Shown here in pieces: positions 18,399-59,500 of a stretch of 64,000 nucleotides of DNA. Below the pieces are notes generated by a model. That model was given only the letters and a program-made list of their open reading frames with translations, searched no databases and was not told where the DNA came from. Each line of letters opens with the position of its first letter. Position 1 is the first letter of the stretch. Source of the DNA: Scenedesmus sp. PABB004 (taxonomy: Eukaryota); the NCBI GenBank assembly GCA_014905635.1, contig JABVCE010000016.1:372001-436000 (forward strand). Reading direction: 5' to 3'. The position numbers were made by a program, and so were the translations under genes.

Positions 18399-19427
18399 TC
18401 AACACCGGCGGCTGGGGGGATGGGGGCTGCCGGGGCGCCCCGGGGGGCGCCCCGACGCCGCGGGCGCGCGTGCGCGGCGCTGCCACCGCCGCGCGCGCGC
18501 CGCCGCCGCCAACACCGACCATGGGCATCCTCTGATCGCCGGCCGCCTGAAACAGGCCACAGCGGCGTGAGGCATGACGGTTTGGGACCGGCCCGTCGCG
18601 TCGGCGAGCAGGCGGTCCGCCACGCAGTCGTTGGCCTCGACGCCCCGGGCGCACGCGCCCGACGCGATCACCCGCGCCGCCACGCCCGCGACGGCGGGCG
18701 CCGCCATCGACGTGCCCGAGAGCACCACCGGCGCGGTGCTCGTGTCGCTGAGGTGGGAGAGCGACGGCACGTCGTTCCCCGGCGCGAAGAGCGCGACGCA
18801 CGTGCCGAAGTTCGAAAAGGCCGCGCGCGCGTCGGTGCGCGTCGTCGCGCCCACCGCGAGCGCGCCGCGCGCTCCGGCGGGCGAGGTCCCGCACGCGTCG
18901 GCGCCGTCGTTGCCGGCCGCGGCGACCACCACCGCGCCGGCCAGGTAGGCGGAATACACGGCGGCGTCGAGCGCCTCGCTGCGCGGCCCGCCGAGGCTCA
19001 TCGACAGCACCTTGAGCGCGTTGCTGCCCGGCCGCGGGTCGGACAGCGCCCACGCGATGCCCGCGGCGACGGCGTCGTTCGTGCCGCTGCCGCTGTCGTC
19101 GAGCACCTTGACCGGCACCACAAGAGCGGCCTTGGCCACGCCGTAGGTGCGGCTCGCGGCCGTGCCGGCGACGTGGGTGCCTGCAGGGAGCAGGGCGCGC
19201 GCGGTGGTGGGCCAGCACGCCGCGCGCGATGCGCCGCGCGCGGCGGCCGGCGGCTGGCCCGCTCGGTCGGGGATCGCGCGCCGGCCTGAGCGCCTGGCGC
19301 TGCGACGCACCGTGGCCGTTGAGGTCCAGGTCGCTGTCCACGCCGGGGTAGGGCCAGAACGCGCCGGTGCGGCCGCGGCCGCCAAAGTCGACGCCGGCAA
19401 GCTTCTCGTCCTCACCGCCGAGCCCAC
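18399..19427 (-). pseudogene. truncated proteinase K-like (S8A) subtilase
   Basis: DLNGHG|THVAGTAASRTYGVAK, VLSMSLGG, VAAAGNDGADAC, FSNFGTCVALFAPG and LSGTSMAAPAVAG are present. No catalytic-Asp motif (DTG), prodomain or signal peptide fits before the next gene's ATG at 19556. Confidence 0.7.
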
Positions 19428-19555
19428 GGCGCACTGTCGAGCCAGCGTCGGTGCGCTGAAGCCGGCCAGTCTTGCGTAGTGATTTTGCGATCAGCGCCCG
19501 CCGTCGCGACGCGCCGCTCGTTCGCGGCATGGGCTGACCGGGGCGGCTGACGCGC

Positions 19556-22500
19556 ATGGCGCGCGCGGGCGGCGGGCGCGTGCGCGGCAGCAGCAGCTGG
19601 CGCGCGGCGGGCCTGCTGCTGTGCCTGGTGTTCGCGCCTGGCCGTGAGGCGCGAGGCGCCCAGGCAGTCCCTGGAGCTGTCGCGGGTGGTGCGCCGGCGC
19701 CGCTCGAGACCCCGGCGTGCCCGGACGGCGGTGATTTGGTCGCTGCCCGCTGCGCCTGGGCGCCCGCGCCGGCCGCCCCGGGGACCGTGGCGCTGCAGGG
19801 AGCCTGGCCGCAGCAGCGCTCGGGCGACCTGCCCGTCGTGGCGCTGCCGGCGGGCGGCGGCGACGGGCGCGCCGTCGAAGGCGCGGCACGCCGCGCGCGG
19901 CGCGCGGGCCGTCCCGGCCCCCGCCGCGCTGGGCGCCGCCGCCCACGCCGCAGCTGACGCCGCCGCGCCCGCCGCCCTCGCACAGGCTTCTCGCTGTCGC
20001 TGCGGCGCCTGGTGCTGGAGGGCGCGGCGCTGGCGCCGCCGCCGGCGCCCTGGCCGCTCGGCATGTTTGACGCGCTGGGCGGCAACCTGTCGATGTCGGA
20101 CGTGCGGCTGGTGGTGGGCGCGGCCGACCTGGCGACGTACGCTGACTGGTTCCAGGGCAACGTCGACCCCGTCCACTTCCACACGGTGCGGAGCGCCCGG
20201 CGCTGCGGCGGGCTGCGGCGCGGCCAGCGCGGCGGGCGCCGGCCCCCGCGCGCGCTCACCGCGCCCGCCCCGGCTCCTGCCCGCCCCTCGCAGGACGACG
20301 CGAGCTTCCTGCAGATCGCGGGCTGGCAGGACGGGCGCACGCAGCTGCACTCCGTGACGCTCGTGTCGGGCGCGTGCGCGCCGGGCGGCGGCCGCGGCGG
20401 CGCGGCCGCGGCGCTCGCGGTCGCGGCGCCGGGGTCGCCGCCGCCGCCGGCCGGCTGCAACGTGCGCACCGTCGACAACGCCACGCTCGTGCCGACGCTG
20501 CTGCGCGCGGCCGGCGTGGCCACGCCGGAGCCGCTGCTCATGCTGATTACCAGCAACGCGACCCTCGGGCCGGGGCTCGGCCCGGGCGCGGTGCCGGTGG
20601 CGCGCCCGGTCGTGCTGGCGGGGCTCTACAGCGTGCCCACGTCGGTGGACCTGGGCATGGTCGTCAACCAGCTCAACGTCACCGCGCCGCACAGCAAGGT
20701 CTTCTGGCAGAGGTGCGTGCCGCCGCGTGCGCGCCGCCGACCGCGCCCGGCCGGGCGGCCCCGCGCTTGCCGCCGCGCTCGCGGCACCGCGCCGCCGCGC
20801 TCACCGCGCCGCCGCGGCCGCCGGTCCCGCCGCGTGATCGCAGCCTGCTGCTGGAGAACGCGGGCCCCGGCGACGCGACGAGCAGCGTCATGGCGCCGCC
20901 CTACTCCGCCGCGGTGTCGGCCAACATATACGCCGTCTACTGCAACCGGTGCGCCCGGCGCGGGCCGCGCCGCGCGCCCCGGCGCGCTCGGCCGCGTGGC
21001 CACAGCGCGCGCGCTCGGCCGCGGCCAAACCACGCTCTGTGCGAACCGCGCCTCACGCCCGCCCCGCCCCGCCGCGCCCCACGCGCCGCGCCGCCGCGCC
21101 CGCGCCTGCGCCGCCAGGACGTCCAACTGCCTCAACCTCTACAACACCACCACCGTGCTCGCCTCGCAGGACGAGATGGACTACGTTACGTTCATGTGAG
21201 GCGGGCGCGCCGCGCCGCGCCGCGCCGCGCCGCGCCCGCCGCCGCCCCGCCGCGCCCCGCGCCCCGCGCGCCGCGCCGCCGACTGCGCTGGCGTCACCGC
21301 CGACTGCGCCGGCGCCGGCGCCGCCGCCGCCGCCGCCAGGTACTCCATGTTCAACTCGCCGCTGCCCAACATGCAGAGCCACGCCGACTTTTACCACACC
21401 GAGCTGCGCGTCACCGTCATCGACGTGCGCCGCCGCCGCCGCGCCGCCGCCGCGCCGCTGGCCTGGGCGCCGCCGCCGCGCTCGCCCGCGCGCCGCCGCC
21501 GCCGCGCTGCCGCCGCGCCGCTGGCCCGGGCGCCGCCGCGGCGCTCGCGCACGCGCCGCCGCCGCCGCCGCGACGGCCGACGGCGCGCCGGCCGCCGCTG
21601 CGCGCCGCAGATGGGCCCTGGGCCCAACGGCTACGGCATGACGCTGCACAACATGTCCACGTCGGCTTGGGTCATAGTCGACGGCGTCTTCACAACGCAG
21701 CCCGCCGTGTCGGTCGCGCCGCGGCTGCCCTTCCCCGCGGGCCGCCCCGTCATCCGCACGGCGACGCAGGCCGCGCCCTGGGTGCAGGCGGTCGACAGCT
21801 GCGCGTCGATGCAGGTGCGGCCCGTCGCGCTGCGGCGCGCGGGGAGAGGGGCGCCGCCCCGCGCGCGCCGAGCGCCGCGCCGCGGGCATCGAGCGCCGCG
21901 CCGCCGCGCCCGCCAGTCTGCCATGGTCGTGCCGTCGGAGGAGAACCGGCTGCACGTCTGGATGCTCACAGCCAATGTCTCCCTCGTGCCGCCGAGCGAC
22001 CCGGCCTGCTGGCAGCGGCGCAAGCTGGAGCGCACCACGCAGGTGCGGCGCGCCGCCCGCCCTCCGCGCCCCGGCCCGCGCGCCGCGCCGCGCCGCGCCC
22101 GCGCGCCGGCCGAGCGCCGCGCGCACGGTGCGCCGCAGATCTACGGCGCCGTCGGCACGCGCAGCGCCGACGCCCCCGGCGGCAGCGCGGCCGACGTGGG
22201 CAGCTACGCGCTGTCATGGGGCTTCCTGCCCGGCGCGCTGGAGCTGCCGGCAGGGGCGCAGGACAAGTTCCTGCAGGTGATGGGTGGAGCGGGCGCGGCG
22301 GCGCGGCAGCGCGGCAGCGCGGCGGCACGGCGACGCGGCGACGCGGCGGCGCGGCAGCGCGGCAGCCGACGCCCGCGCGCGCTGCCCCACCCCCGAGCCC
22401 GCCGACCGCCCCGCTGCCGCGCCCTGACCCGCCGCGCCGCGCCGCCGCAGATCCAAAACGTCTCCCTCGCGCAGCTGCCGCAGGGCCCCGGCGCAGCCGC

Positions 22501-25374
22501 GGCGGCGGGCCTGCGCGCGGCCGCGCCCGGCGGCGGCGGCGGCCCGGCGCCGCCCGACGTGTGGACGCTGCTGATGTGGTCGGTCAACCGGTGCGCCGCA
22601 GCCGCAGCGGCAGCGTCGCCGCCGCAGCAGGAGCGCGCCGGCGCAGCAGCAGCGCTGCGCCGCGCACGACCGCGCCGCCGCCGCCGCCGGCGCCGCAGGA
22701 CGATGACGGGAAGCGCGCTCTTCGTGGCCGACGCCGACATACGGCTGCCGGCGCCCGAGCTTGGCGTCCTCGCCGCCGCCGCGCGCGGGGCGAGCAGCTT
22801 TGTGGTGCAGCTCGCCGGTGCGGCGCGCGCGCGCTCGTCCGCGCCGCCGCGCGCCCACGCCGCTGCCCGCACCGCGCTCACGCCCACGCCCACGCTGGCC
22901 GCGCCGCGCTCGCGCCCGCGCTGCCCGCGCGCGCAGGCAGCGTGGGCCTGGCGTTCACCGCGGCGCGCCTGGAGGGCGGCGGCGTGCGCGTGGGCGCGCT
23001 GCAGGGCCCTGGCATGACCGGCTCCAACCTGCTCCTGCTGCCCGACGGCGGCGCGGCCGCCGCGATGCCCGGCGGCTACGCGTGGATCGACGACGTCAGC
23101 GCCGCGCCCACGAGCAGCCGCCTTGAGCCCCCCGGCCCGCGTGGCGGCGCGGCGCGCGTCGCCGCCGTCGTGGGCACCGTCGTGGGCGGCGCCGCGCTGC
23201 TCACGGCGGCCGTGCTCGGCTGCTGGTGGTGGGCGCGCCGCCGTCGCCGCCGCCGCGCCGCGCGCGAGCAGCAGCAGCTCATCACCGCGCTCAAGCGCGG
23301 CTCCGACTGCACGTCGGTCAAGGGCAGCGAGCCGTCGGGCATGCTCTCCAGCAGCAGCGGCGGCGCGGGCGGGGAGCCGCTGGCCGGGTTTGTGGCCGTC
23401 GACGTCGACCGCCTGGCCGACGCCGGCGGCGGCGGCAGCGACTGCCGCGCGACCCCGCGCGGCGGCAAGCCCTCGCCGCGCGGCGGCGGGCCCGCGCCCG
23501 CGGCGTGCGGCGACGGCACCGCCGGCAGCGCGGCGCGCTCGCAGGCGGGCAGCCTCGGCAGCGGGCTCGGCGGCGGCTCGCGCTCGGCCGACTCGGACCC
23601 GGGCGACAACACCGTCGCGTCGGGGCTGGCGCGCTGGAAAACGGCGATCAGCGCCACCACCATGCAGCTCATGGAGCGGCGCATGGCGTCGGCGGGCCAG
23701 ACCATGGCCATGGCCGGCTCCGCCTCAAGCGCCGGCAGCGGCAGCCGGCGCAGCCCGCAGGCCGCGGCGCTCGCCGCGGCGGCGGGCGGCGCCGCGGCGC
23801 GCGAGCCGTCGGGCGGCGGCCGCGGCGGGCCGCCGGCGGCGGGCGGCGCGCCTGCGAACAGCCTGCAGCTGCAGGGCCTGCTGGGGCAGGGGAGCTTCGG
23901 CGCCGTCTACCTCGCGACGTGGCACGGCAAGCGCGTCGCGGTCAAGGTCATGCAGCTGCCCGCCACCGCCCTGCTCGTGCCTGCGGCGGCCGCCGACGAC
24001 GGCGCCGACGCGCCGGACGACGGCCTGGGCGCAGAGGCGGCCGCCACACGGCGGCGGCGCGCGCGGCAGCTGGAGCAGAACAGCCCGCCGCACATGGCGA
24101 TCATGGAGACCGTGGTCAGCAGCACGATGAGCCACCCCAACGTCGTCCAGGTCTACACCTACATGCTCAACCCGCTCACCACCGACGCCGCCGCCGGCGG
24201 CAGCGCCGGCGGCGCCCGCGGCCAGCAGCAGCAGGCGGCCGCGCTGGGGCAGGCGGCGGCGCCGGCGGCAGCAGCCGGCGTGAGCTCGGTGTCCGGCTGG
24301 GAGCTCAAGCTGGTCATGGAGCTGTGCGACCAGGTGCGGCGCAGCAGCGGCGCGCCGAGCTGCCGCGCGGGCGCGCCCGCGCGGCGCGCGTGGCTCACGC
24401 CCGCGCGCCGCCCGCCCGCGCTCCGCAGGGCACGCTGCGCGACGCGCTCGACCGCAAGCTGCTGCTGCGCGGCAGCGGCGCGGCGATGCTGCAGCCGGCG
24501 CTGGTGCTGTCCCTCGCGCACGACGTCGCCGCGGCGCTGCTGCACCTGCACAGCGAGGGCGTCGTGCACGGCGACCTCAAGGCCGGCAACGTGATGCTCA
24601 CCAAGGGCGGCGACGACCCCGGCGGCGTGTGGGCGGCCACGGTAGGCTATCGCGTGACGGCCAAGGTCGCCGACTTTGGCCTGGCGCTGCCGCTCGGGCC
24701 CGCCGACACGCACGCGACCATGGCCGCGCGGGTGAGCGCGGCGCGGCGCGCCGCGCGGCGCCGGGCCAGCGCACGCATGCTGCGGCGCGGCGCGCGGAGC
24801 GCGCGCTCACCGCCCCCGCCGCCGCCCCCGCCGCCGGCAGGGCACGCCAACGCACATGTCGCCGGAGCTGTTCATGGCGGGGCACGTGAGCAAGGCGAGC
24901 GACGTGTACGCGTACGGCGTGCTGCTGTATGAGATCATGACCGGGCAGCGCGCGTACGCGGGCGTGCCCATCCCGCTGCTGCCGCACGAGGTCGCGCGGC
25001 AGGGCCTGCGCCCGACGTGGCCGCCCGGCATGCCGTCCGGCTGCCGCGACCTGCGGCGCCTCGCCGAGGCGTGCTGGGCGCAGCAGCCGCAGGACCGGCC
25101 GCCGCTGCAGGTGATCTTCAACTTTTTGGAGGCCTGCCAGGACGGGCGGGCGCCGCCGGAGCTGGCGGCGTGCGCGGACGGCCAGCAGCAGCAGCAGCAG
25201 CAGCAGCCCCAGGCTGCACCGCCTGGCGTGACCACGCCGCCAGCTGCCGCGCCAGGCGGCGCCGGCGCTGCCAGAGGCGAGGGCCAGGGCGGCCTGTCGT
25301 GGAGTGAAGTGACCTATGGCAGCCTGAAGAAGCTGGCGAGCAGCGAGCAGCCGCCGCAGCCGCCGCCGCCGTAG
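19556..25374 (+). CDS. single-pass receptor-like Ser/Thr kinase (TKL group, non-RD), paralog 1
   Basis: Signal peptide (AAGLLLCLVFA), long ectodomain, TM VAAVVGTVVGGAALLTAAVLGCWWW followed by poly-Arg, then kinase motifs GQGSFGAVY, VAVK, HGDLKAGNV, ADFG, GTPTHMSPE, SDVYAYGV. 14 exons, all joined in frame. Confidence 0.9.
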
Positions 25375-26307
25375 CGGCCGGCGTTGACGTGGCACGCCAC
25401 GCGTGCGGTCGCCGGGAGAATGCGTCCGCGGCGGGCCGGGGCCAGGGGCCGGCAGATGGTTTAGGATGGGCTCTGCGGGCGTCTAACTGCTCACGCCGAC
25501 TGGCTTGTGCGTCGGCCAGGCCGGCGCTGGGCCGCGTGCGAAACTACCGGGCAGTTGCACGATTGGTGTGCCGCTGCCGGGCTGCGTGTGCGGGGGTGCT
25601 TGCTCCGGATGTCGTTCAGATGTTGATCGCGAGGGGTGGTCGGTCGCGCTCGGCGCGCGTGCAGCACTGCAGCGCCCTCCCTTCTGCGTGCGCCCGTCCT
25701 CGGTTTTGCTGCGCCCGCCGCCGCACGGCACGGCGCGCGGCGGCGCGTCAGCGCGGGGCGTCCCGCGTGCCCCGCCCCGCCGATGTCCACACACACATCC
25801 TGCCCCGGGGCGTTCTGATGATCCAACTGTCGATGGAACGCGTCGTCGGGCCATGACGTCGGCACGGCCGGAAATGTCTGTGTCGCCCAGGCTTCACTGG
25901 GCGGGCTTCATTGATTGATTGATCGGGAGAGCGCGCGGCGAACACGCGCGGGTGTAAGCTGCTGGCGGCGAGGGCGCGCGCCGCAAACGTTGGAGCGCCG
26001 CGCCGGGTGGCCGCGGGCGCGTGCGCGGCGCGTGGCAGCGCCCCAGAGCCACCCAGGCCTCGCCCCGCGACGAGCGCCGGCCCGCCCCAGGGCCGCGAGG
26101 CGGCGGCGCTGGCGGCGGCGGCGCAGCTGCACCGCAGCGGCGCGGCAGGCCCTGCAGCGGAGAGCGCGCCTGCCCGCGGCCGCATGCCGGCACTGCTCCC
26201 GCACGATCGGTGCGTCCGCAGCGCTCTGGGCCGGCGGAGGGAGCCGGAGGGAGCCGTGCCGTGATGGGCGCCGCGGGAGCTGCGCGCTCGGGCTGAGCGT
26301 CGCCGTC

Positions 26308-28901
26308 ATGCCCGCCGTGGCGTTGGCGGTGGCGCTGCTGGCGGTGGCGTCCGCGGCGCGCGTCTTCGGCGCGCCCGCCCCGCTGGCGTGCGCGCCGGGG
26401 CCCGGCGGCGCCGTGAGCGGGCCGTCCTGCACGTGGACGGCGCCGCTGGGGGCATCCAGCGGCGCCGTCGCCCTGGAGGGCGCCCTGGGCGCCGGGGTCG
26501 AGAGCGCGACGCCCATCGTCTTTGCGGCACCCGGCCTGGCGCCGGCAGGCGGCGACGAGGCCCGACCAGGTGACCGGGCGGGGCGCCGGGCCTGCCGGGC
26601 CAGCGGGCGCAGCCGGGCGGGCGACGCCGCGATCGCGCGCCGGCCACGCGTGCGCAGCAGCGGCGGCGGCGCCGGCGCGGGCCTGACCCCGCTCGCCCCG
26701 CCGCGCCGGGCGCAGGCATGACGCTCTCCCTGGAGCGGCTGGTGCTGGTGGGCTTTGAGCACGCCCCCGTCGGCCCCGGCAGCGAGGGCCTGCCGGCGCT
26801 CTGGCCGCGCGGCCTGCTGAGCGCCGGCGGCGCCGCGCTGCGGCTCACCGACGTGCGGCTCGTGACGAGCAGCCCGGAGGTGTTCCAGGGCTGGCTGCAG
26901 GCCTTTGCCGGCGACAGCCGCGTCGTGCAGTGGACGGTGAGCGAGCGCGGGGCGGGGCAGCAGCGGGCAGCGCGGTCGCCGCCATCCGCCGCCCGCAGCG
27001 GCAGCGGCGCCGCGCCGCCCCGACCCCTGCGCCGCCGCCGCCGCCGCCGCCGCCGCGCGCAGGACAACGCCACGTTTGTGCACGTCGTCCAGTGGGCGGA
27101 CGAGCGCACGGCGGTCAGCTCGGTCGGGTTCCTGCTGCAGGCGGCCCAGCCGGCACCGGGCGTGCCCGTGCCGCCGCCGCTGGGGCCGCTGGCGCTGCCG
27201 CCGCCGCACGTGCGCGGCGCCGTCGTCGCGGCGACCAACGCGAGCCTCGTGCCGGCGCTGCTCGCGTACGCGCCGCTCGCCACGCCCGCGCCGCTGCTCG
27301 TCTACGTCACGGCCAACGTCAGCCTCGGCGCGCGCCCGCCGCTGCCGCCCGGCGGCGTGCCGGTCAACCGCCCCGTCGTGTTTGTTGGCCTCGCGTCGGC
27401 GGTGACGTCGGTCGACTTCCAGATGGTGGTCAACCAGCTCAACGAGACCGGCAGCCGGCACAGCAACGTCACGTTTGTGGGGCTCACGCTCGAAAACGTC
27501 GCGCCCGGCGACGCCGTCACGAGCGGCATCGCGGCGCCGTTCTCCATCGCCATCGCCAACAACGTCTGGGCGGCCTTCTACAACCGGTGCGGCCCGCCGC
27601 CGGGCAGGGGGGCGGGGCGCAGCGCTGCGCCGCTGCGCCGCGCCGCCGGCGCTGGCGCTGCTGGCGGCCGACCGCGCGTGCGCGCCCGCGCCCGCCCCGC
27701 GCCCCGCGCCCGCGCCCGCGCGCGCAGGACCGCGGCCAACGAAGTGCGCCTGGCGCTGTTCAACGTGACGATGGTGCTGCCGCAGGAGTCCGAGATGGCC
27801 TACGTGACGTGCGTCGCACGCGCGCGCGCGCGCGCCGCGCGCCCTCTTGCCACAGCACGCGCTCGCGCCCCTGCGCCGCCGACGTTGCTCGCCGCCGCCG
27901 ACGCCGTGGGCCCGCGCGCCGACCTCGCTGCCGCCGCCCGCAGGTACATGTTCACGCTCTTCACGTCCTCCCTGCCCTACCTGCGCCAGCAGACGAGCTT
28001 CTACACTGACGTGCTGCACATCTCGGTGCTGCAGTTTGCGCCCGGCCCGGGCAGCAACGCCATCACCGTGAACCGCCTGGTCTCCTGGTACCACTGGTGG
28101 CGCAACGTGGTGCTCACCACAAAGCCCGCCGTCGCGCCGGCGCTGCCGCTGCCGCCGCGGCAGCTCGTGCTGTCGACGACGACGCGCACGTCGCCGCTCG
28201 TGCAGGCGGTGCACAGCGCGGACGACCTGCGGGTGCGGCGCGCGCCCGCGGCCGCGCGCGCGCGCCGGCGCGCGCTCGCGGCCGCGCTCACCGGCGGCGC
28301 CCGCGCGCGTGGTTGCGCGCCGCCGCAGCTGGCGGCCGAGAGCGAGGTGCTGGGCGACCGCGCGCACATCCTGCTGCTGCTGGCCAACATCACCCTCCCG
28401 CTCAGCGCCGACGGCGCGGAGCCGCCCAACGGCAGCGCCATCACGCTGCGCACGCCGATGAGCTGGATCGGCACCTCGCCCGAGCAGGAGGCGAGCAGCG
28501 AGGCGTGGCCGCCCGTGGCGGCGCAGCGCGGCGCCGCGGCGCTGTCGGGGCCGCAGGTGCACCTGGGCCTGGGCTACAGCCCCGGCAGCGTCGTGCTGCC
28601 GCGCGGCGCGGACGACGACGCGCTGCAGCTGCAGCAGCTCGTGCTCGGCCAGCTGCCGCAGGGCCGGGGCGTCGCCGCCGCGCTCCGCCGCGACGGCGAG
28701 CGCATCCCCATGGAGCTGTGGACGGTGCTGCTGTGGGCGTTCAAGCGGTGCGCGGCGCAGGCCCCCGCGGGGCGGGCGGGGCGGGCGGCGCCGGCGCTCG
28801 CTCGCCCGCGGCGGCGCGGGGCGTCGGCGGCGGCGGCGCCGCGCCGCCGGGCCTGCCGGCCTGCGCGCCTGCGCCGCCGCACCGCGCTCACACCCACCCA
28901 C

Positions 28902-28933
<32 letters not shown>

Positions 28934-31900
28934 AGGCCGATGAAGGGCCGGCCGCTGAGCCTGAACGGCGTGGCGCTGCAGCTGCCGGGGCGCGAGCTCG
29001 AGAGCGTGCAGTCCGCGGCGGCGCGGTCACGGGACTTTGTCATTGAGCTCGCGGGTGCGGGGCGGCCCCGCGCCTGCGCGCGGCCCCAGGGGAGGGCCTC
29101 GGGGCGCTCGCTGCTCCGCCGCAGCGGGGCAGGCGGGGGAGCGCGGCGCGCGCCGGCTCGGCCGCCGACGCCCTCCGCGCCGCGCCGACCCCGCCGCCGC
29201 GCGCCGCCCCCGCCGCCGCGCGCCGCCGCCCCGCCGCCGCGCCAGGCGACGGCGTGAGCGCGCTGACGTTCCAGGGCGTGTCGCAGGACGACGGCGCCGT
29301 GCACGTGTCGAGCCTGACGGGGCCCGGCCTCGTGGCGACAAACCTCACGCTGCTGCTCGACCCAGCGGCCGCGTCGGCGATGCCCGGCGGGTACGTGTGG
29401 CCCGACCCCGGCCGCTTGCCCGTGCCCGTGCTGCTGCGCGGCGGGCTGCCGGCGTGGGCGACCGCGCTCATAGTGGTCGGCGCGGTCGCGGCGGCGGCGC
29501 TCGCCGCGCTCGCCGGCGCCGTGTGGCTGCGCCGGCGGCGCGGCCGCGCGCCCGCGCTGCCCTGCGCCGACTGCAGCAAGCTGCTGGATTCGCCGGCGCC
29601 GCACGGCCGCGCCGGCAGCGCCGGCGGCGACAACTCGGGGTCGGGCAGCTGCGCGCGGCACTCCCTGGCCTCCAGCAGGCAGCGCGCCGCGTGCGCGAGC
29701 CCCGGCGGCGGCGGGCCGCTCGGCGGCACGCGCAGCTCGGTGGGCAGCGACGCGAGGCGCTCGAGCGGCGACACGCAGACGCGACGGGACGTGCTTGTGC
29801 CCGTGGCCGTGCCGCCCGGCGGCGGCGGCGGCGCTGCCGCCAAGGACGCTGACGAGGCGGCCGCCGCGGCGTCGAGCGCGTCGCACGGCGTGGACGTGAG
29901 CGCGCTCTGCGACGCGCCGGTGCCGGTGCACGTGGCCGACAGCCTCGCCGACAGCGTGGCGGCGGGCATGCAGCGCTGGCGCGCGGCGGTGAGCAGCACC
30001 ACCATGCTGCTCATGGAGCGGCGCATGGACGCGGCGCACCAGGGGGCGTCGGCCACGGGCGCGGGCTCGTGCGCCGGCAGCGGCAGCTGGCACGGCATGG
30101 CGCGCGGCGCCGGCGGCGGCAGCAGCGGCGGCTGCGGCGAGGGCGAGCCGGGCGGCGGCGACGTGGAGGGCGGCGGCGGCGCGCGCGGCGGCGGCGCGCT
30201 GGGCGCCGCGACCGGCGCCGACGCGCTGGCGGCCGCGGCCGCGGGCGCCGCCGCGGCCGGCGCGGCGGCGGGGCAGCAGCTGCAGCTGCAGGAGCTGCTG
30301 GGGCAGGGCAGCTGCGGCTGCGTCTACCTGGCGACGTGGCGCGGCAAGCGCGTCGCGGTCAAGGTCATGCAGCTGCCCGCCAACGCGCTGCTGGGCCCGC
30401 AGAGCGGCGGCCTGTGCGAGGCCGAGGCGGCGAGCAGCAGCGGCGGCGGCGACGGCGGCGCCGACGCGCTGCAGCGGCGGCGGCGCGCGCGGCAGCTACG
30501 CTGCAGCCCGCCGCACATGGCGATCATGGAGGCGGTGCTGAGCAGCACGATGAGCCACCCCAACGTCGTCCAGGTCTACACCTACATGCTCAACCCGCTC
30601 ACCACCGACGCCGCCGGCGGCAGCGCCAGCGGCGCCGGCGGCGGCCGCGCGCGCGCCGCGCCCGCGGTGTCGAGCGGGCAGGACGTGAGCGGCTGGGAGC
30701 TGCGCCTGGTGATGGAGTACTGCAGCGAGGTGCGGCGCGCGGGGGCGCGTGCACGCACGGCGGCGCCGTGCGAGCGGCGGCGCAGGTCGCGCCGCGCGCG
30801 GGGCGCGCGCCCACGCCGCGCCGCGTCCGGGCCGCCGCCTCTGCCGCCGCCGGCGCGCGCGCAGGGCTCGCTGCGCGACGCGCTCGACTGCGGGCTGCTG
30901 TGCAAGCCAGGGTCGTGCATGGCGCCGAGCGCGGTGCTCACGCTCGCGCACGACGTCGCCGCGGCGATGCTGCACCTGCACAGCGAGGGCATCGTGCACG
31001 GCGACCTCAAGGCCGGCAACGTGATGCTCACCACGAGCAACGACGACAGCGGCAGCTCCCTCGTCGGCGGCGGCGCGCGCGGCTGGGGCGGCGGCTCGGG
31101 CGGGCGGCCACTCACGGCCAAGGTCGCCGACTTTGGCCTGGCGATGCCGCTCGGGCCGGCCGACACGCACGCCACGCTCTGCGCCCGGGTGAGCGCGGCG
31201 GGGAGCCACGGCGCTCGGCCAGCGCGCGCTGCGCGGCGCGTGCTGCGGCGCGGCGCGCCGGCGCGCGCGCTCACGGCCCCCGCCGCCGCCCCCGCCGCGG
31301 CGCCGGCAGGGCACGCCAACGCACATGTCGCCGGAGCTGTTCATGGCGGGGCACGTGAGCAAGGCGAGCGACGTGTACGCGTACGGCGTGCTGCTGTATG
31401 AGATCATGACTGGGCAGCGCGCGTACGCGGGCGTGCCCATCCCGCTGCTGCCGCACGAGGTCGCGCGGCAGGGCCTGCGCCCGACGTGGCCGCCCGGCAT
31501 GCCGTCCGGCTGCCGCGACCTGCGGCGCCTCGCCGAGGCGTGCTGGGCACAGCAGCCGCAGGACCGGCCGTCGTTCGCTGAGATCCTGCGCACGCTCGAC
31601 CTGTGGGCGGCGGGCTGCCACGGCTGGCCCCCTGCGCAGCCGCCGGCGCCGGCGTTCGGCGCAGCGGTCGCCGCGCCCGCAGGGCCCGCGGCGCAGCAGC
31701 AGCAGCAGCAGGCGCGGCCAGCCGCGGCGAAGGCGCTGCAGCTGCAGGTGCCGCTGCCGCCCCGGGAGCCGGAGCTCGTCGACGCGTGCACGCCGGTGCC
31801 GCCCGTGGGCGCAAGCTCGCCGGGGCGGGTGCGCTGCCGTCGCCCGGCGCGCCTCCGGGCCCTGCCGCGCAGGCGTCGGCGGCGGCCGGGCGCAACAGGC

Positions 31901-31941
31901 GCATGGACTGGAGCGAGGTGGGCGGATACAACGGCTCGTGA
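26308..31941 (+). CDS. single-pass receptor-like Ser/Thr kinase (TKL group, non-RD), paralog 2
   Basis: Signal peptide MPAVALAVALLAVASA, ectodomain homologous to paralog 1, TM WATALIVVGAVAAAALAALAGAVWL followed by RRRR, and the same kinase motifs with G-loop GQGSCGCVY. The last exon ending MDWSEVGGYNGS* is inferred from the WSEV motif shared with paralog 1. Confidence 0.88.
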
Positions 31942-56517: not shown

Positions 56518-59500
56518 TCAGCCCGCGACCAGCCCGCGCCCCGAGGGCCGCCGCCGCGCGAGCCCGGCGGCCCGCGCGGCGCCGCCGTCGCTCGCGCCGC
56601 CGCCGCCCGCGCCGCCGTCCGTGGCGCCCGCCAGCGCCGCCGCCAGCGCGCCGGCGTCTGCGCCACCGCCGCCGCCGCTGCCGCCGCTGCCCGCCGCTCC
56701 GGGCGCGCGCCCCGCCTCGCTCGGGCGCGCGCTCGCGGCGAGCGCGGCCGCGCAGCGCGCGTCGCCGCCGGGCGCCACGCCCGGGGCCGCCGGCGCGCCG
56801 CCGCCGGGCGTGGGCCCGGGCGCAACCAGCGGCACGCGCGGGTCGCAGAGGCGCTGCACGCCCCGGATGCGATCCAGCACACCGCGCATGCTCGGCCGGC
56901 CGTCGGGGTCGAACGCGGTGCAGTCGCGCACGAGCTCCTGCAGCCCCGCCAGCACGCGCCGCTCGCGCTCGCCTGCGGCGCGCGCGTCGACGCGGCTCAG
57001 CGGCCGCGCCGCCGCCGCCCTTCCAGCCGCGCCGCGCTGCGCGGCGCGCGGCTCACCCGCGGCGTCGGGCACGCTGAGCGGCGGCAGCGCCATCGCGCCC
57101 GGGTCGGCGATCCAGCGCGCGCAGATCTGCATGCCGTCCAGCCCGGCAAACGGCCGCGCGCGCTCGACCATCTCCCACAGCATCACGCCCAGGGAGTAGA
57201 CGTCCGCCTGCGCGCGCGGCGGCGGCGGCGGCACGGCGGCGGCGGCGGCGCGGGCCACGTGGCCCCTCGCGCGCGCGGCGCGTGCCAGCGCGCGCCAGCC
57301 CGCCCTCGCCCACACAGTGTGGCCCGCGCCCGCGCCCCGCTGGCACCCTCCCCTGGCTCGGCGCCCCGGCTCGGCCCACCTTGAGCACGCGCTCGACCGT
57401 CGCGCCCGGCGCCTGCAGGCTCTCGTCCAGCAGCTCGGGCGCGCAGTATGCGATCGTGCCGACCACGCCCGGCGTGAGCGTGCGCGCCGGCGCGCCGCGC
57501 GGCAACGGGCCCGGGCCCGGCGCGCCGCGCGGCGACGCGGGCGCGCCGCGCGGCGACGGCGGCGCGCCGCCGCCGCTCGCCGGCGCCGGCGCCGCGCCGT
57601 CGGCGTCGGCGGGCGGCGGCAGGACGTGGCGGGACTGGCCGAGGTCGCCGACCTTCATGACCATTCCCGCGCCGACAAAGATGTTGGCCGGCTTGACGTC
57701 GCGGTGCAGAATCGCGGGCCGCCGGGTGTGCAGGTGCAGCAGCCCGCGCGCGACGCCACGCATGAGCGGGAGCAGCTTGACCAGGTCCGGCCGCGCCAGC
57801 GCGACCGCCGCCGCGCCGGCGCCGGCTGCGTGCGGCGCGGCCGCGGGCGTGGGCGCGGCGCCGCCGCCGGCTCCGCCGCCGCCGCCAGCTCCGCCGCCGC
57901 CGGCGCTGGCGCGCGAGCCGGGCGCGCTCGCGCGCGCGGGCCGCGCCGCGCGCGGCAGCGGCGACGCGCTGTGATGGAGCAGCGTGTCGAGCGTGCCGCG
58001 GCACCACTCGAGCACAAGGCAGAGGCTGCCGTCGTCCTTTGTCGCGAGGCCGCGCAGGCCGACGAGGTTGTCGTGCGCGCCGGCGGCGAGGTGCAGCTCG
58101 ATCTCGCCCAGCCCGGGCCCCTCCTTGATGGCGACCGGCGCGTCGAGGTGCCGCGCCTCGTACACGCTGCCCTCGGCGCCGCGGCCGATGCGGCGGCCGA
58201 GCGCGAGCGCGCGCCACTCGATGAGCTCGACCGACACCTGCGGCGGACCGCCGCGCCGCAGGCCGCCGCCGCCGACGCCGCCGCCCGCGCCGCCACCCGC
58301 GCCGGCGCTGCTCCACGCGGAGCGGCCGAGGCTGCTCGAGCTGCTCAGCGCGAGGCTGCCCCAGCCGCTCGCGCCGCCGCGCCACGTGAGCGGCGCGCCG
58401 TCAAACGGCAGCGAGCCGTGGCTGAGGTGGCTGGGGAAGGAGGCGAGGCTCCCGGGCGAGTGCACGGCGTAGCCGTCCTCGTGCGCCGCCGCCGAGCCAG
58501 CGCCCACGAGGACCCAGCCCGGCGCGCCCGCGCCGCCGGGCAGGCGCACGGTGAGCGCGCGCGCGCGCGCGCGGGCTGTCCAGCGGCCAGGCCTCGTGCG
58601 GCGGCGGCGCGCCCGCGCCGGGCGGCGGCGGGCCGCAGGCGGGCAGCCCCGGCGGCGCCGCGCGGCGCGCGTCGTGCACGCGCCACGACGGCGAGCGCGG
58701 CGAGCCGCCGCCGCCGTCCCGCCCCGCGCCGGCGGTGGCCAGCTGGTATGCCGACTGCAGCGTGACGACCGGCTGCAGCGGCTGCGGCGGGCGGGCCGCG
58801 CCGCCGCGCTGCTCCGCCCCGCCCGCCGCCGCTGCCTCCGCCGCTGCCGGCGGCTGCGGCTGTGGCTGCGGCTGTTCCGGCAGCACCGCGAGCGCGGTGA
58901 ACGAGACCGAGCCCGCGCGCGCCAGGCCGGGAGGCGCGCTGGCGGTGGCCGCCGCCGCCGCCGCGAGCGCGGCGGTCGAGAACGGCGACGGCAGCTGGCG
59001 GCACTGCCCGCCGGCGTCTGCCCGCCCGTGGCTCGCCTCGGGGCTCGCCCCGGGGCCGCCCGCCGCTGCCTGCTGGCGAGCGGCGCCGTGCACCGCCCCG
59101 GCAATGGATGCCAGCATGTGCTGGAACGGCGCCCGCCAGCCGCCGCCGTCTGTCGAGGCGGTGCGGCGGCGCTGCGCCGCCGCGCCCGGCTCCGCGGGCG
59201 CGCCCGGGCCCGCGGGCGCGGCCGCCGCGCAGGCGGCTGCCGCGTCGGGCGCCCCGCCGTCGCCGGGCTCGCTGCCGCTGCCGCTGCTCCTGCTGAGGCG
59301 CGCGCCGGAGGTCGACCCCGCCGCGGCGACTAGCGAGGTTGCGCGGCTGTCGCCGAGGCTGCTGCCGGCCGTGTCGTCGGTGCTCGCCCAGCCCGGCGGC
59401 GCCGCAGGCGCGGGCGCGCAGCGCTCCTCCGGCTCCAGCGCCTGCCCGTGGCAGCACAGCGACGGCCGCGGCGTGGGGCTGCCGCTGCTGAGCCGCCCGG

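Follow-up and report, generated by a model that had tools for sequence, protein, structure and literature searches.

Two adjacent genes of the green alga Scenedesmus sp. PABB004, here called g1 and g2, appear to encode an anciently duplicated pair of type-I, single-pass receptor kinases that sense glycans through a beta-helix ectodomain, a reading to which we give a probability of roughly 70%. Both genes lie on the + strand of the window, the 64,000-nt stretch of DNA that was analysed and whose positions serve as coordinates throughout. The divergent paralogue type, g1, occupies 19556-25374 and is predicted to have 15 exons encoding 1286 aa, and the canonical type, g2, occupies 26308-31941, with 11 predicted exons encoding 1401 aa. 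A preliminary description of this DNA had proposed a tandem pair of receptor-like kinase genes between 19556 and 31941, and our spliced models bear this out, with the ATG of g1 and the stop codon of g2 falling on exactly these two outer positions. The G+C content of the window is ~80% throughout, a composition at which open reading frames (ORFs) are poorly informative; the models come from a small dynamic-programming gene finder that was trained only on sequence windows with strong third-position G+C periodicity.

The two predicted proteins share one order of domains: a hydrophobic N-terminus (g1 residues 17-35 and g2 residues 1-24, on a Kyte-Doolittle scan only), an ectodomain of ~640-700 aa, a single transmembrane (TM) helix, a low-complexity juxtamembrane region of 200-250 aa, and a kinase. 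The putative signal peptide and the ectodomain of g1 are encoded at 19556-23157, introns included, followed by the TM helix at 23158-23232 and an Arg-rich stop-transfer sequence, ARRRRRRR, at 23233-23256. In g2, the TM helix is encoded at 29455-29526 and runs into the basic stop-transfer sequence LRRRRGRA at 29527-29550. Both proteins, as is required of a receptor kinase, carry one TM helix between ectodomain and kinase, and the helices and basic stretches noticed at the outset are confirmed. So is the abundance of N-x-S/T sequons: the ectodomains contain 9 (g1) and 10 (g2), where ~2.7 would be expected from their Asn and Ser/Thr content, the cytoplasmic parts contain 0 and 1, and five sequon columns are common to 8-9 of 9 family members. 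Because sequons are enriched and conserved only N-terminal of the TM helix, they support an extracellular or luminal position for the ectodomain. On the other side of the membrane, the otherwise low-complexity linker holds a 21-residue motif, G-L/M-x-R-W-R/K-x-A-V/I-S-x-T-T-M-x-L-M-E-R-R-M (23623-23685 in g1 and 29965-30027 in g2), which is present in all nine family members and is probably a regulatory or dimerisation helix.

The ectodomains are homologous, as the preliminary description had argued from shared motifs. These motifs pair up on the + strand as co-linear sets ~6.8 kb apart: VDLGMVVNQLN at 20645-20677 in g1 with VDFQMVVNQLN at 27411-27443 in g2, LENAGPGDA at 20851-20877 with LENVAPGDA at 27489-27515, WTLLMW at 22562-22579 with WTVLLW at 28719-28736, and AMPGGYAW at 23062-23085 with AMPGGYVW at 29377-29400; the set ends with the kinase motif HGDLK at 24567-24581 and 30997-31011. 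The spliced products are 40% identical over 598 ectodomain positions and 51% identical over 1215 positions of the whole proteins, and one ectodomain exon pair alone gives a BLASTP E value of 2e-23. A three-frame tblastn comparison of the two genes was not used, as low-complexity matches swamp the signal in DNA of 80% G+C.

The ectodomain had been put down as unassigned, and in Pfam it is: the only families matched by exons of the two genes are the kinase families PF07714 and PF00069, with no family in any ectodomain exon of either gene and no beta-helix family at E ≤ 0.1. Its predicted structure, however, is a right-handed beta-helix (beta-solenoid) that falls in the pectin-lyase-like fold class, an assignment at the level of fold class and not of family, and regions of an orthologue already carry this label, Table S2 of PMC12757656 listing five regions of the Tetradesmus obliquus ectodomain A0A383VT84 as 'Pectin lyase-like' via pLM-BLAST/Foldseek. 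We modelled the ectodomain twice. The first model, made with AF2 from a 49-row alignment, covers residues 34-704 of the T. obliquus g2-type orthologue P0005 and has a predicted local distance difference test score (pLDDT) of 86.0 and a predicted template modelling score (pTM) of 0.77; the second covers the window's own g2 exon 3, from a 110-row alignment, with a pLDDT of 87.3 and a pTM of 0.79. When the P0005 model was compared by VIA-align with 48,161 representative chains, 27 chains reached a Z of at least 5. The best was the binding region of the L. reuteri adhesin SRRP (SRRP-BR; 5nxk_A, Z 9.6, root-mean-square deviation 3.2 Å over 125 residues, model 412-650), and rows at Z 5-7 came next, with tailspikes, pectin methylesterases and lyases acting on alginate, pectate or pectin; of the 50 titles listed, 32 name a polysaccharide lyase, a pectin methylesterase, a galacturonase or a tailspike. 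Beta-helix matches cover segment 409-671 of the model best, while segment 163-408 matches IgA1-protease beta-helix domains and pectate lyase at Z ~5 and segment 7-163 matches the leucine-rich repeat (LRR) and SV2 luminal solenoids weakly, at Z 4.4-4.9. The exon 3 model returned SRRP (Z 5.5), pectin methylesterase (4.8) and alginate lyase (4.7). Foldseek against the PDB placed PL6 alginate lyases, GH55, GH110, polygalacturonases and tailspikes in its weak top rows for the whole ectodomain, headed by the PL6 alginate lyase 8bwk_A (E 2.8e-3), and re-examination of its own ranking gave the same picture, with 35 of 760 chains at Z of at least 5. The named neighbours in the ESM Atlas were all beta-helix families, scoring 0.80-0.83.

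Several results weigh against this fold assignment and the ligand that it implies. Foldseek gave zero PDB matches at E ≤ 0.001 for either model. The re-aligned matches are middling, with just one row above Z 8, and by VIA-align's own caution a Z below 8 may mean a common arrangement only; LRR proteins also match the exon 3 model, at Z ~3-4. ESM Atlas scores of 0.80-0.83 are at a level that shuffled proteins often reach, and even at E ≤ 1 no member out of 49 matches a Pfam beta-helix family (Beta_helix, Pectate_lyase, NosD etc.). The structural comparison that had been suggested as a check on the ectodomain found a characterised fold class and no specific family of known function.

Conservation within the ectodomain points to where a ligand might sit. 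Its most conserved block is exon 3 of g2 (27063-27584), and its most conserved positions are polar: the N of N-V-S, R-P, the D of T-S-x-D, and the E-N of L-E-N. In the alignment of 110 sequences to g2 exon 3, N85, R103 and D118 are conserved at 90% or more, as are N209, R227, D242, E268 and N269 among 49 sequences in P0005 ectodomain numbering. In the DSSP string of the model, these residues come at similar distances behind successive strands and could stack into one surface site, a placement that is open to the objection that it comes from strand spacing and not from three-dimensional coordinates.

Such a site could also be catalytic. The ectodomain may be a membrane-tethered, active polysaccharide lyase, hydrolase or epimerase, with the kinase reporting on or regulating wall remodelling. 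Polysaccharide-active enzymes dominate the fold class (PL1, PL6 and PL9 lyases, pectin methylesterases, GH28), one of them heads the Foldseek rows, and the strongly conserved N / R / D / E-N set on successive coils may resemble the residues that bind Ca2+ or act as the base in lyases. Pfam lyase and hydrolase families, however, match 0 of the 49 members, identity to the enzymes is only 5-13%, and the protein that matches best in structure is an adhesin without enzymatic activity. We regard an active enzyme as unlikely, although it is the alternative that survives best.

The family to which g1 and g2 belong looks lineage-restricted, as had been proposed, with every named source so far in the Sphaeropleales. 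A search with g2 exon 3 among 1.84 billion sequences returned 159 cluster representatives at E ≤ 1e-3, most of them fragments, with 94 at E ≤ 1e-10. Full-length relatives come from T. obliquus, Scenedesmus sp. NREL 46B-D3, Monoraphidium minutum and an Enallax costatus transcriptome, and a Flechtneria rotunda relative is a 398-aa transcript ORF; the five named genera (Scenedesmus, Tetradesmus, Enallax, Flechtneria and Monoraphidium) all belong to this one order. Since some members are transcript-derived, homologues are expressed in a relative.

Within the family, the two paralogue types are old. The ectodomain of g1 has its orthologue in T. obliquus P0157 (OEZ85_001840) and that of g2 in T. obliquus P0005 (OEZ85_001831), each at ~60% identity, whereas paralogues are only 37-40% identical over the same domain. 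An ectodomain tree of nine rows, all of them retained, splits g1-type from g2-type clades with a support of 100 in the Shimodaira-Hasegawa-like approximate likelihood ratio test (SH-aLRT), and the duplication is therefore older than the split between Scenedesmus and Tetradesmus. The genes for P0157 and P0005 probably lie on one contig, and the paralogue pair has remained linked since the duplication. T. obliquus and NREL 46B-D3 also have a third paralogue type (P0158, P0164), which did not turn up for PABB004 in protein searches that used a length window and a word filter, which returned only two proteins from this strain, P0159 (g1) and P0001 (g2). The ectodomains have diverged more than the kinases.

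The kinase domain is encoded at 23863-25101 in g1 (introns 24334-24428 and 24732-24840) and at 30280-31570 in g2 (introns 30730-30864 and 31189-31309). Three exons per gene score above the curated cut-offs of PF07714 and PF00069, and PF07714 outscores PF00069 on the C-lobe exons. Both genes encode the catalytic motifs GQGS[FC]G (GQGSFG in g1), VAVKVM, HGDLKAGN (24567-24590 in g1, 30997-31020 in g2), KVADFG (DFG at 24672-24680 and 31129-31137) and HMSPE, and the full set of catalytic motifs is present in all eight family members that cover the domain. As the preliminary description had noticed, the catalytic loop reads HGD where HRD is canonical; because the catalytic Asp is preceded by Gly in six of the eight members and by Ala in the other two (HAD), the non-RD state is a fixed trait of the family. 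By its motifs the kinase is catalytically complete and non-RD. Only the kinase part of P0157 matches solved structures in a phmmer search of the PDB, with MLK4 best (1.3e-22), followed by Src, MLK1, CTR1 and DLK, and the best 60 of its 1235 matches include no IRAK or plant receptor-like kinase (RLK) chain. In sequence, the domain looks like a tyrosine-kinase-like enzyme of the MLK/Raf type and not like a member of the RLK/Pelle lineage.

These affinities bear on the function first suggested for the pair, that of pattern-recognition receptors sensing microbial or grazer molecules, with the non-RD kinase as the mark of an innate-immunity role. The non-RD loop is indeed universal among the eight members, non-RD kinases have been linked to innate immune signalling across kingdoms (PMC8463890), and the greater divergence of the ectodomains would suit a receptor of this kind. 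The step from non-RD to pattern recognition should not be carried over to these genes, however, as that association was drawn for IRAK and RLK/Pelle kinases and the best solved relatives here lie among MLK, Src and CTR1 enzymes. Both types are moreover conserved one to one across genera, at the ectodomain identity given above, whereas immune receptors typically turn over rapidly. An immune role strikes us as doubtful, and we rank it behind a catalytic ectodomain.

One part of the kinase departs from the history of the rest. The tract that comprises the end of an intron and the C-lobe exon (24812-25105 in g1, 31276-31575 in g2) is 92-100% identical between the genes in DNA, against 45-80% for flanking coding sequence. 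In their C-lobe exon g1 and g2 encode the same 87 aa (100% identity) and the T. obliquus paralogues are 93% identical, while orthologues share only 85-89%. In a four-taxon comparison, eight informative C-lobe sites group by species and none by paralogue type, compared with six by species and 102 by type in the ectodomain, and synonymous differences amount to 0.03 in the C-lobe against 0.25-0.42 outside it. This pattern indicates that the exon has been homogenised within each species (Scenedesmus and T. obliquus) by gene conversion. Conversion across the whole kinase was considered and ruled out: in a tree built on a larger region, which starts ~60 alignment columns before HGD and takes in the C-lobe to its end, sequences still group by paralogue type (98 SH-aLRT), so that the tract is short and limited to one exon. 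Separately, a 60-base block in the N-lobe coding region (24122-24181 in g1, 30545-30604 in g2) is 100% identical in DNA, which could mean either another short patch of conversion or strong constraint. The ratio of nonsynonymous to synonymous change (dN/dS), whose comparison between ectodomain and kinase had been put forward as a further check, is uninformative between g1 and g2: it is 0.74-1.39 outside the C-lobe, because the paralogues are old and a third-position G+C of ~97% compresses synonymous sites.

The groove of a beta-helix protein is typically where an extended polysaccharide binds. SRRP-BR, the best structural match, binds polygalacturonic acid, rhamnogalacturonan I and chondroitin sulfate A without catalysis (PMC5866549). 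We propose that the signal peptide sends the glycosylated ectodomain to the outside of the cell, where the beta-helix would bind a glycan in extended form. This would most likely be a polymer from the wall or matrix of the alga itself, or else an external polysaccharide. The likely site of contact is the conserved ladder of polar residues. On binding, the receptor would change its conformation or its state of oligomerisation, and the kinase would then signal, perhaps with the conserved juxtamembrane helix taking part in its regulation. The divergence between the paralogue ectodomains suggests different ligands or specificities, and a C-lobe that gene conversion has kept identical suggests that they share downstream partners, so that the pair may feed two ectodomain specificities into one signalling output, as a sensor of wall integrity or of external polysaccharide. 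A variant of this scheme, in which the polar ladder is a working, Ca2+-dependent site that cleaves or processes polysaccharide and is wired to the kinase, and the paralogues act jointly as an enzyme-coupled or heteromeric wall sensor, their C-lobes kept identical by repeated gene conversion for the sake of a shared dimer interface or substrate, seems to us about as doubtful as the immune role.

Less probable still is that the beta-solenoid serves mainly as an adhesin, holding the sister cells of a coenobium together or attaching cells to surfaces, with the kinase secondary. Monoraphidium is usually solitary, and it has the family too, which counts against a role in the colony, just as the fully conserved catalytic motifs of the kinase argue for signalling. 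On the other side, the best structural match is itself a bacterial surface adhesin (SRRP-BR; PMC5866549), the adhesin PfbA is also among the listed structural matches, and the named sources comprise four Scenedesmaceae genera besides Monoraphidium. We consider adhesion a poor candidate for the main function.

The spliced models also bear on two database entries. Exon 3 of g2 encodes 174 aa that are 100% identical to part of the NCBI protein P0001 from Scenedesmus sp. PABB004 (1823 aa, annotated 'D-xylose 1-dehydrogenase NADP(+) 2'), which is g2 fused to a downstream Gfo/Idh/MocA oxidoreductase gene. P0159 (1810 aa, annotated 'RPL6') is ribosomal protein L6e, a DUF423 protein and g1 fused. Both entries keep Arg/Ala-rich introns as coding sequence. 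A 13-residue stretch of P0001 and an Arg-rich insert of P0159 are absent from all orthologues, the T. obliquus orthologue P0157 agrees with our splice choices for g1, and the C-terminus of the g2 model (...MDWSEV...) matches that of the NREL 46B-D3 orthologue P0008 (...MAWSEV...). On sequence grounds, the orthologues favour the spliced models over both annotations. A C-terminal W-S-E-V motif ends both g1 (25282-25374) and g2 (31899-31941) and also occurs in the NREL 46B-D3 orthologue.

Intron borders in the models are mostly of the form CAG| at the acceptor and |GTG[AC]G at the donor. The weak junctions of g1 are those of exon 1, the donor at 21823, the acceptor at 22714 and the last intron, which was drawn with a GC donor; in g2 the exon 1 donor is weak. 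Exon structure is uncertain at the 5′ end of g1: exon 1 ends at 19643 in the model, 19880 and 19910 are candidate boundaries as well, and in the alternative that runs to 19880 it has a GC donor at 19881, reads ...AVEG|FSLSL... and gains an N-terminal C-x-C-x-W module, which is present in the g1-type orthologue of NREL 46B-D3 (PMC12757656, Table S1). That g1 is a decaying duplicate without function, as its hard-to-model 5′ end and chimeric annotated protein might suggest, is very improbable given an open spliced frame of 1286 aa with all kinase motifs and g1-type orthologues in both T. obliquus (P0157, 60% ectodomain identity) and NREL 46B-D3.

Two other features of the window were recorded. 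Upstream of g1, a subtilase gene fragment (Peptidase_S8, E 6.9e-27) lies on the minus strand at 18399-19490, its end 66 bases away from the start codon of g1; within its RPL6-DUF423-g1 fusion, P0159 appears to take in the + strand of this stretch. A separate protein kinase fragment with a canonical HRDVK loop (Pkinase, E 5.6e-09) lies on the minus strand at ~57557-57856, a position unrelated to g1 and g2.

Orthologues of both genes are already catalogued. A 2026 survey, PMC12757656, compiled 736 Chlorophyta RLKs from 34 species, defining an RLK by a signal peptide, a single TM helix and a kinase, the same architecture as that of g1 and g2. Its Table S1 includes A0A7J7PQV1 and A0A383VT84 (g2-type), A0A7J7PW29 (g1-type) and A0A7J7PR76 (third type), and records, from DeepTMHMM, a signal peptide and one TM helix for the orthologues of NREL 46B-D3 and T. 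obliquus; the fold label cited above is likewise part of that catalogue. PABB004 is not among its proteomes, according to its species table and Table S1. The survey assigns no function to these proteins and discusses neither gene conversion nor the non-RD state (the term 'non-RD' occurs 0 times in its text), and searches of its Table S2 found no annotated region for the NREL 46B-D3 members. What appears to be new here is that the paralogue types are older than the Scenedesmus/Tetradesmus split and yet have a C-lobe exon homogenised within species; to this we add corrected gene models for two chimeric database entries, a confident structural model and candidate residues to mutate. The pair amounts to a natural experiment, in which the ectodomains have diverged and gene conversion has kept the C-lobe identical in two species. 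Few surface receptors have been characterised in green algae outside the land-plant lineage, and no beta-helix receptor kinase is known to have an assigned ligand. No general view is changed by the pair, but it offers a reasonable entry point to the question of whether chlorophytes sense wall or matrix polysaccharide via beta-helix receptors.

Set beside known systems, g1 and g2 share parts with several. With the SRRP binding region of L. reuteri (PDB 5NXK), the best structural match, they share a predicted beta-solenoid, at 14-16% identity and over part of the algal ectodomain only; the bacterial protein is a cell-wall-anchored adhesin without TM helix or kinase, unlike the algal pair. PL1 and PL6 lyases, pectin methylesterases, GH28 enzymes and phage tailspikes share the fold class, at Z 5-7 over 130-160 residues of segments 163-408 and 409-671, but the beta-helix enzymes have no sequence-profile match to the algal ectodomain, which is in addition fused to a kinase. 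Among plants, FLS2, EFR and XA21 are non-RD pattern-recognition receptor kinases of the RLK/Pelle family. Such receptors have in common with g1 and g2 the type-I layout and a residue other than Arg before the catalytic Asp, and differ from them in that the algal ectodomain is not an LRR domain and the algal kinase is nearest to MLK, Src and CTR1. WAKs and CrRLK1L/FERONIA, finally, are plant pectin-sensing wall receptor kinases. Their ectodomains are of the EGF/GUB or malectin-like kind, folds unrelated to the algal beta-helix, and their kinase family also differs. The pectin lyase-like genes that appear in PMC5002434 were considered and set aside, being downstream targets in Arabidopsis only and not relevant to the ectodomain. 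In function, by contrast with these differences of fold and family, the plant wall receptors may work like g1 and g2, as surface kinases that monitor wall polysaccharide (for CrRLK1L roles, see PMC5002434).

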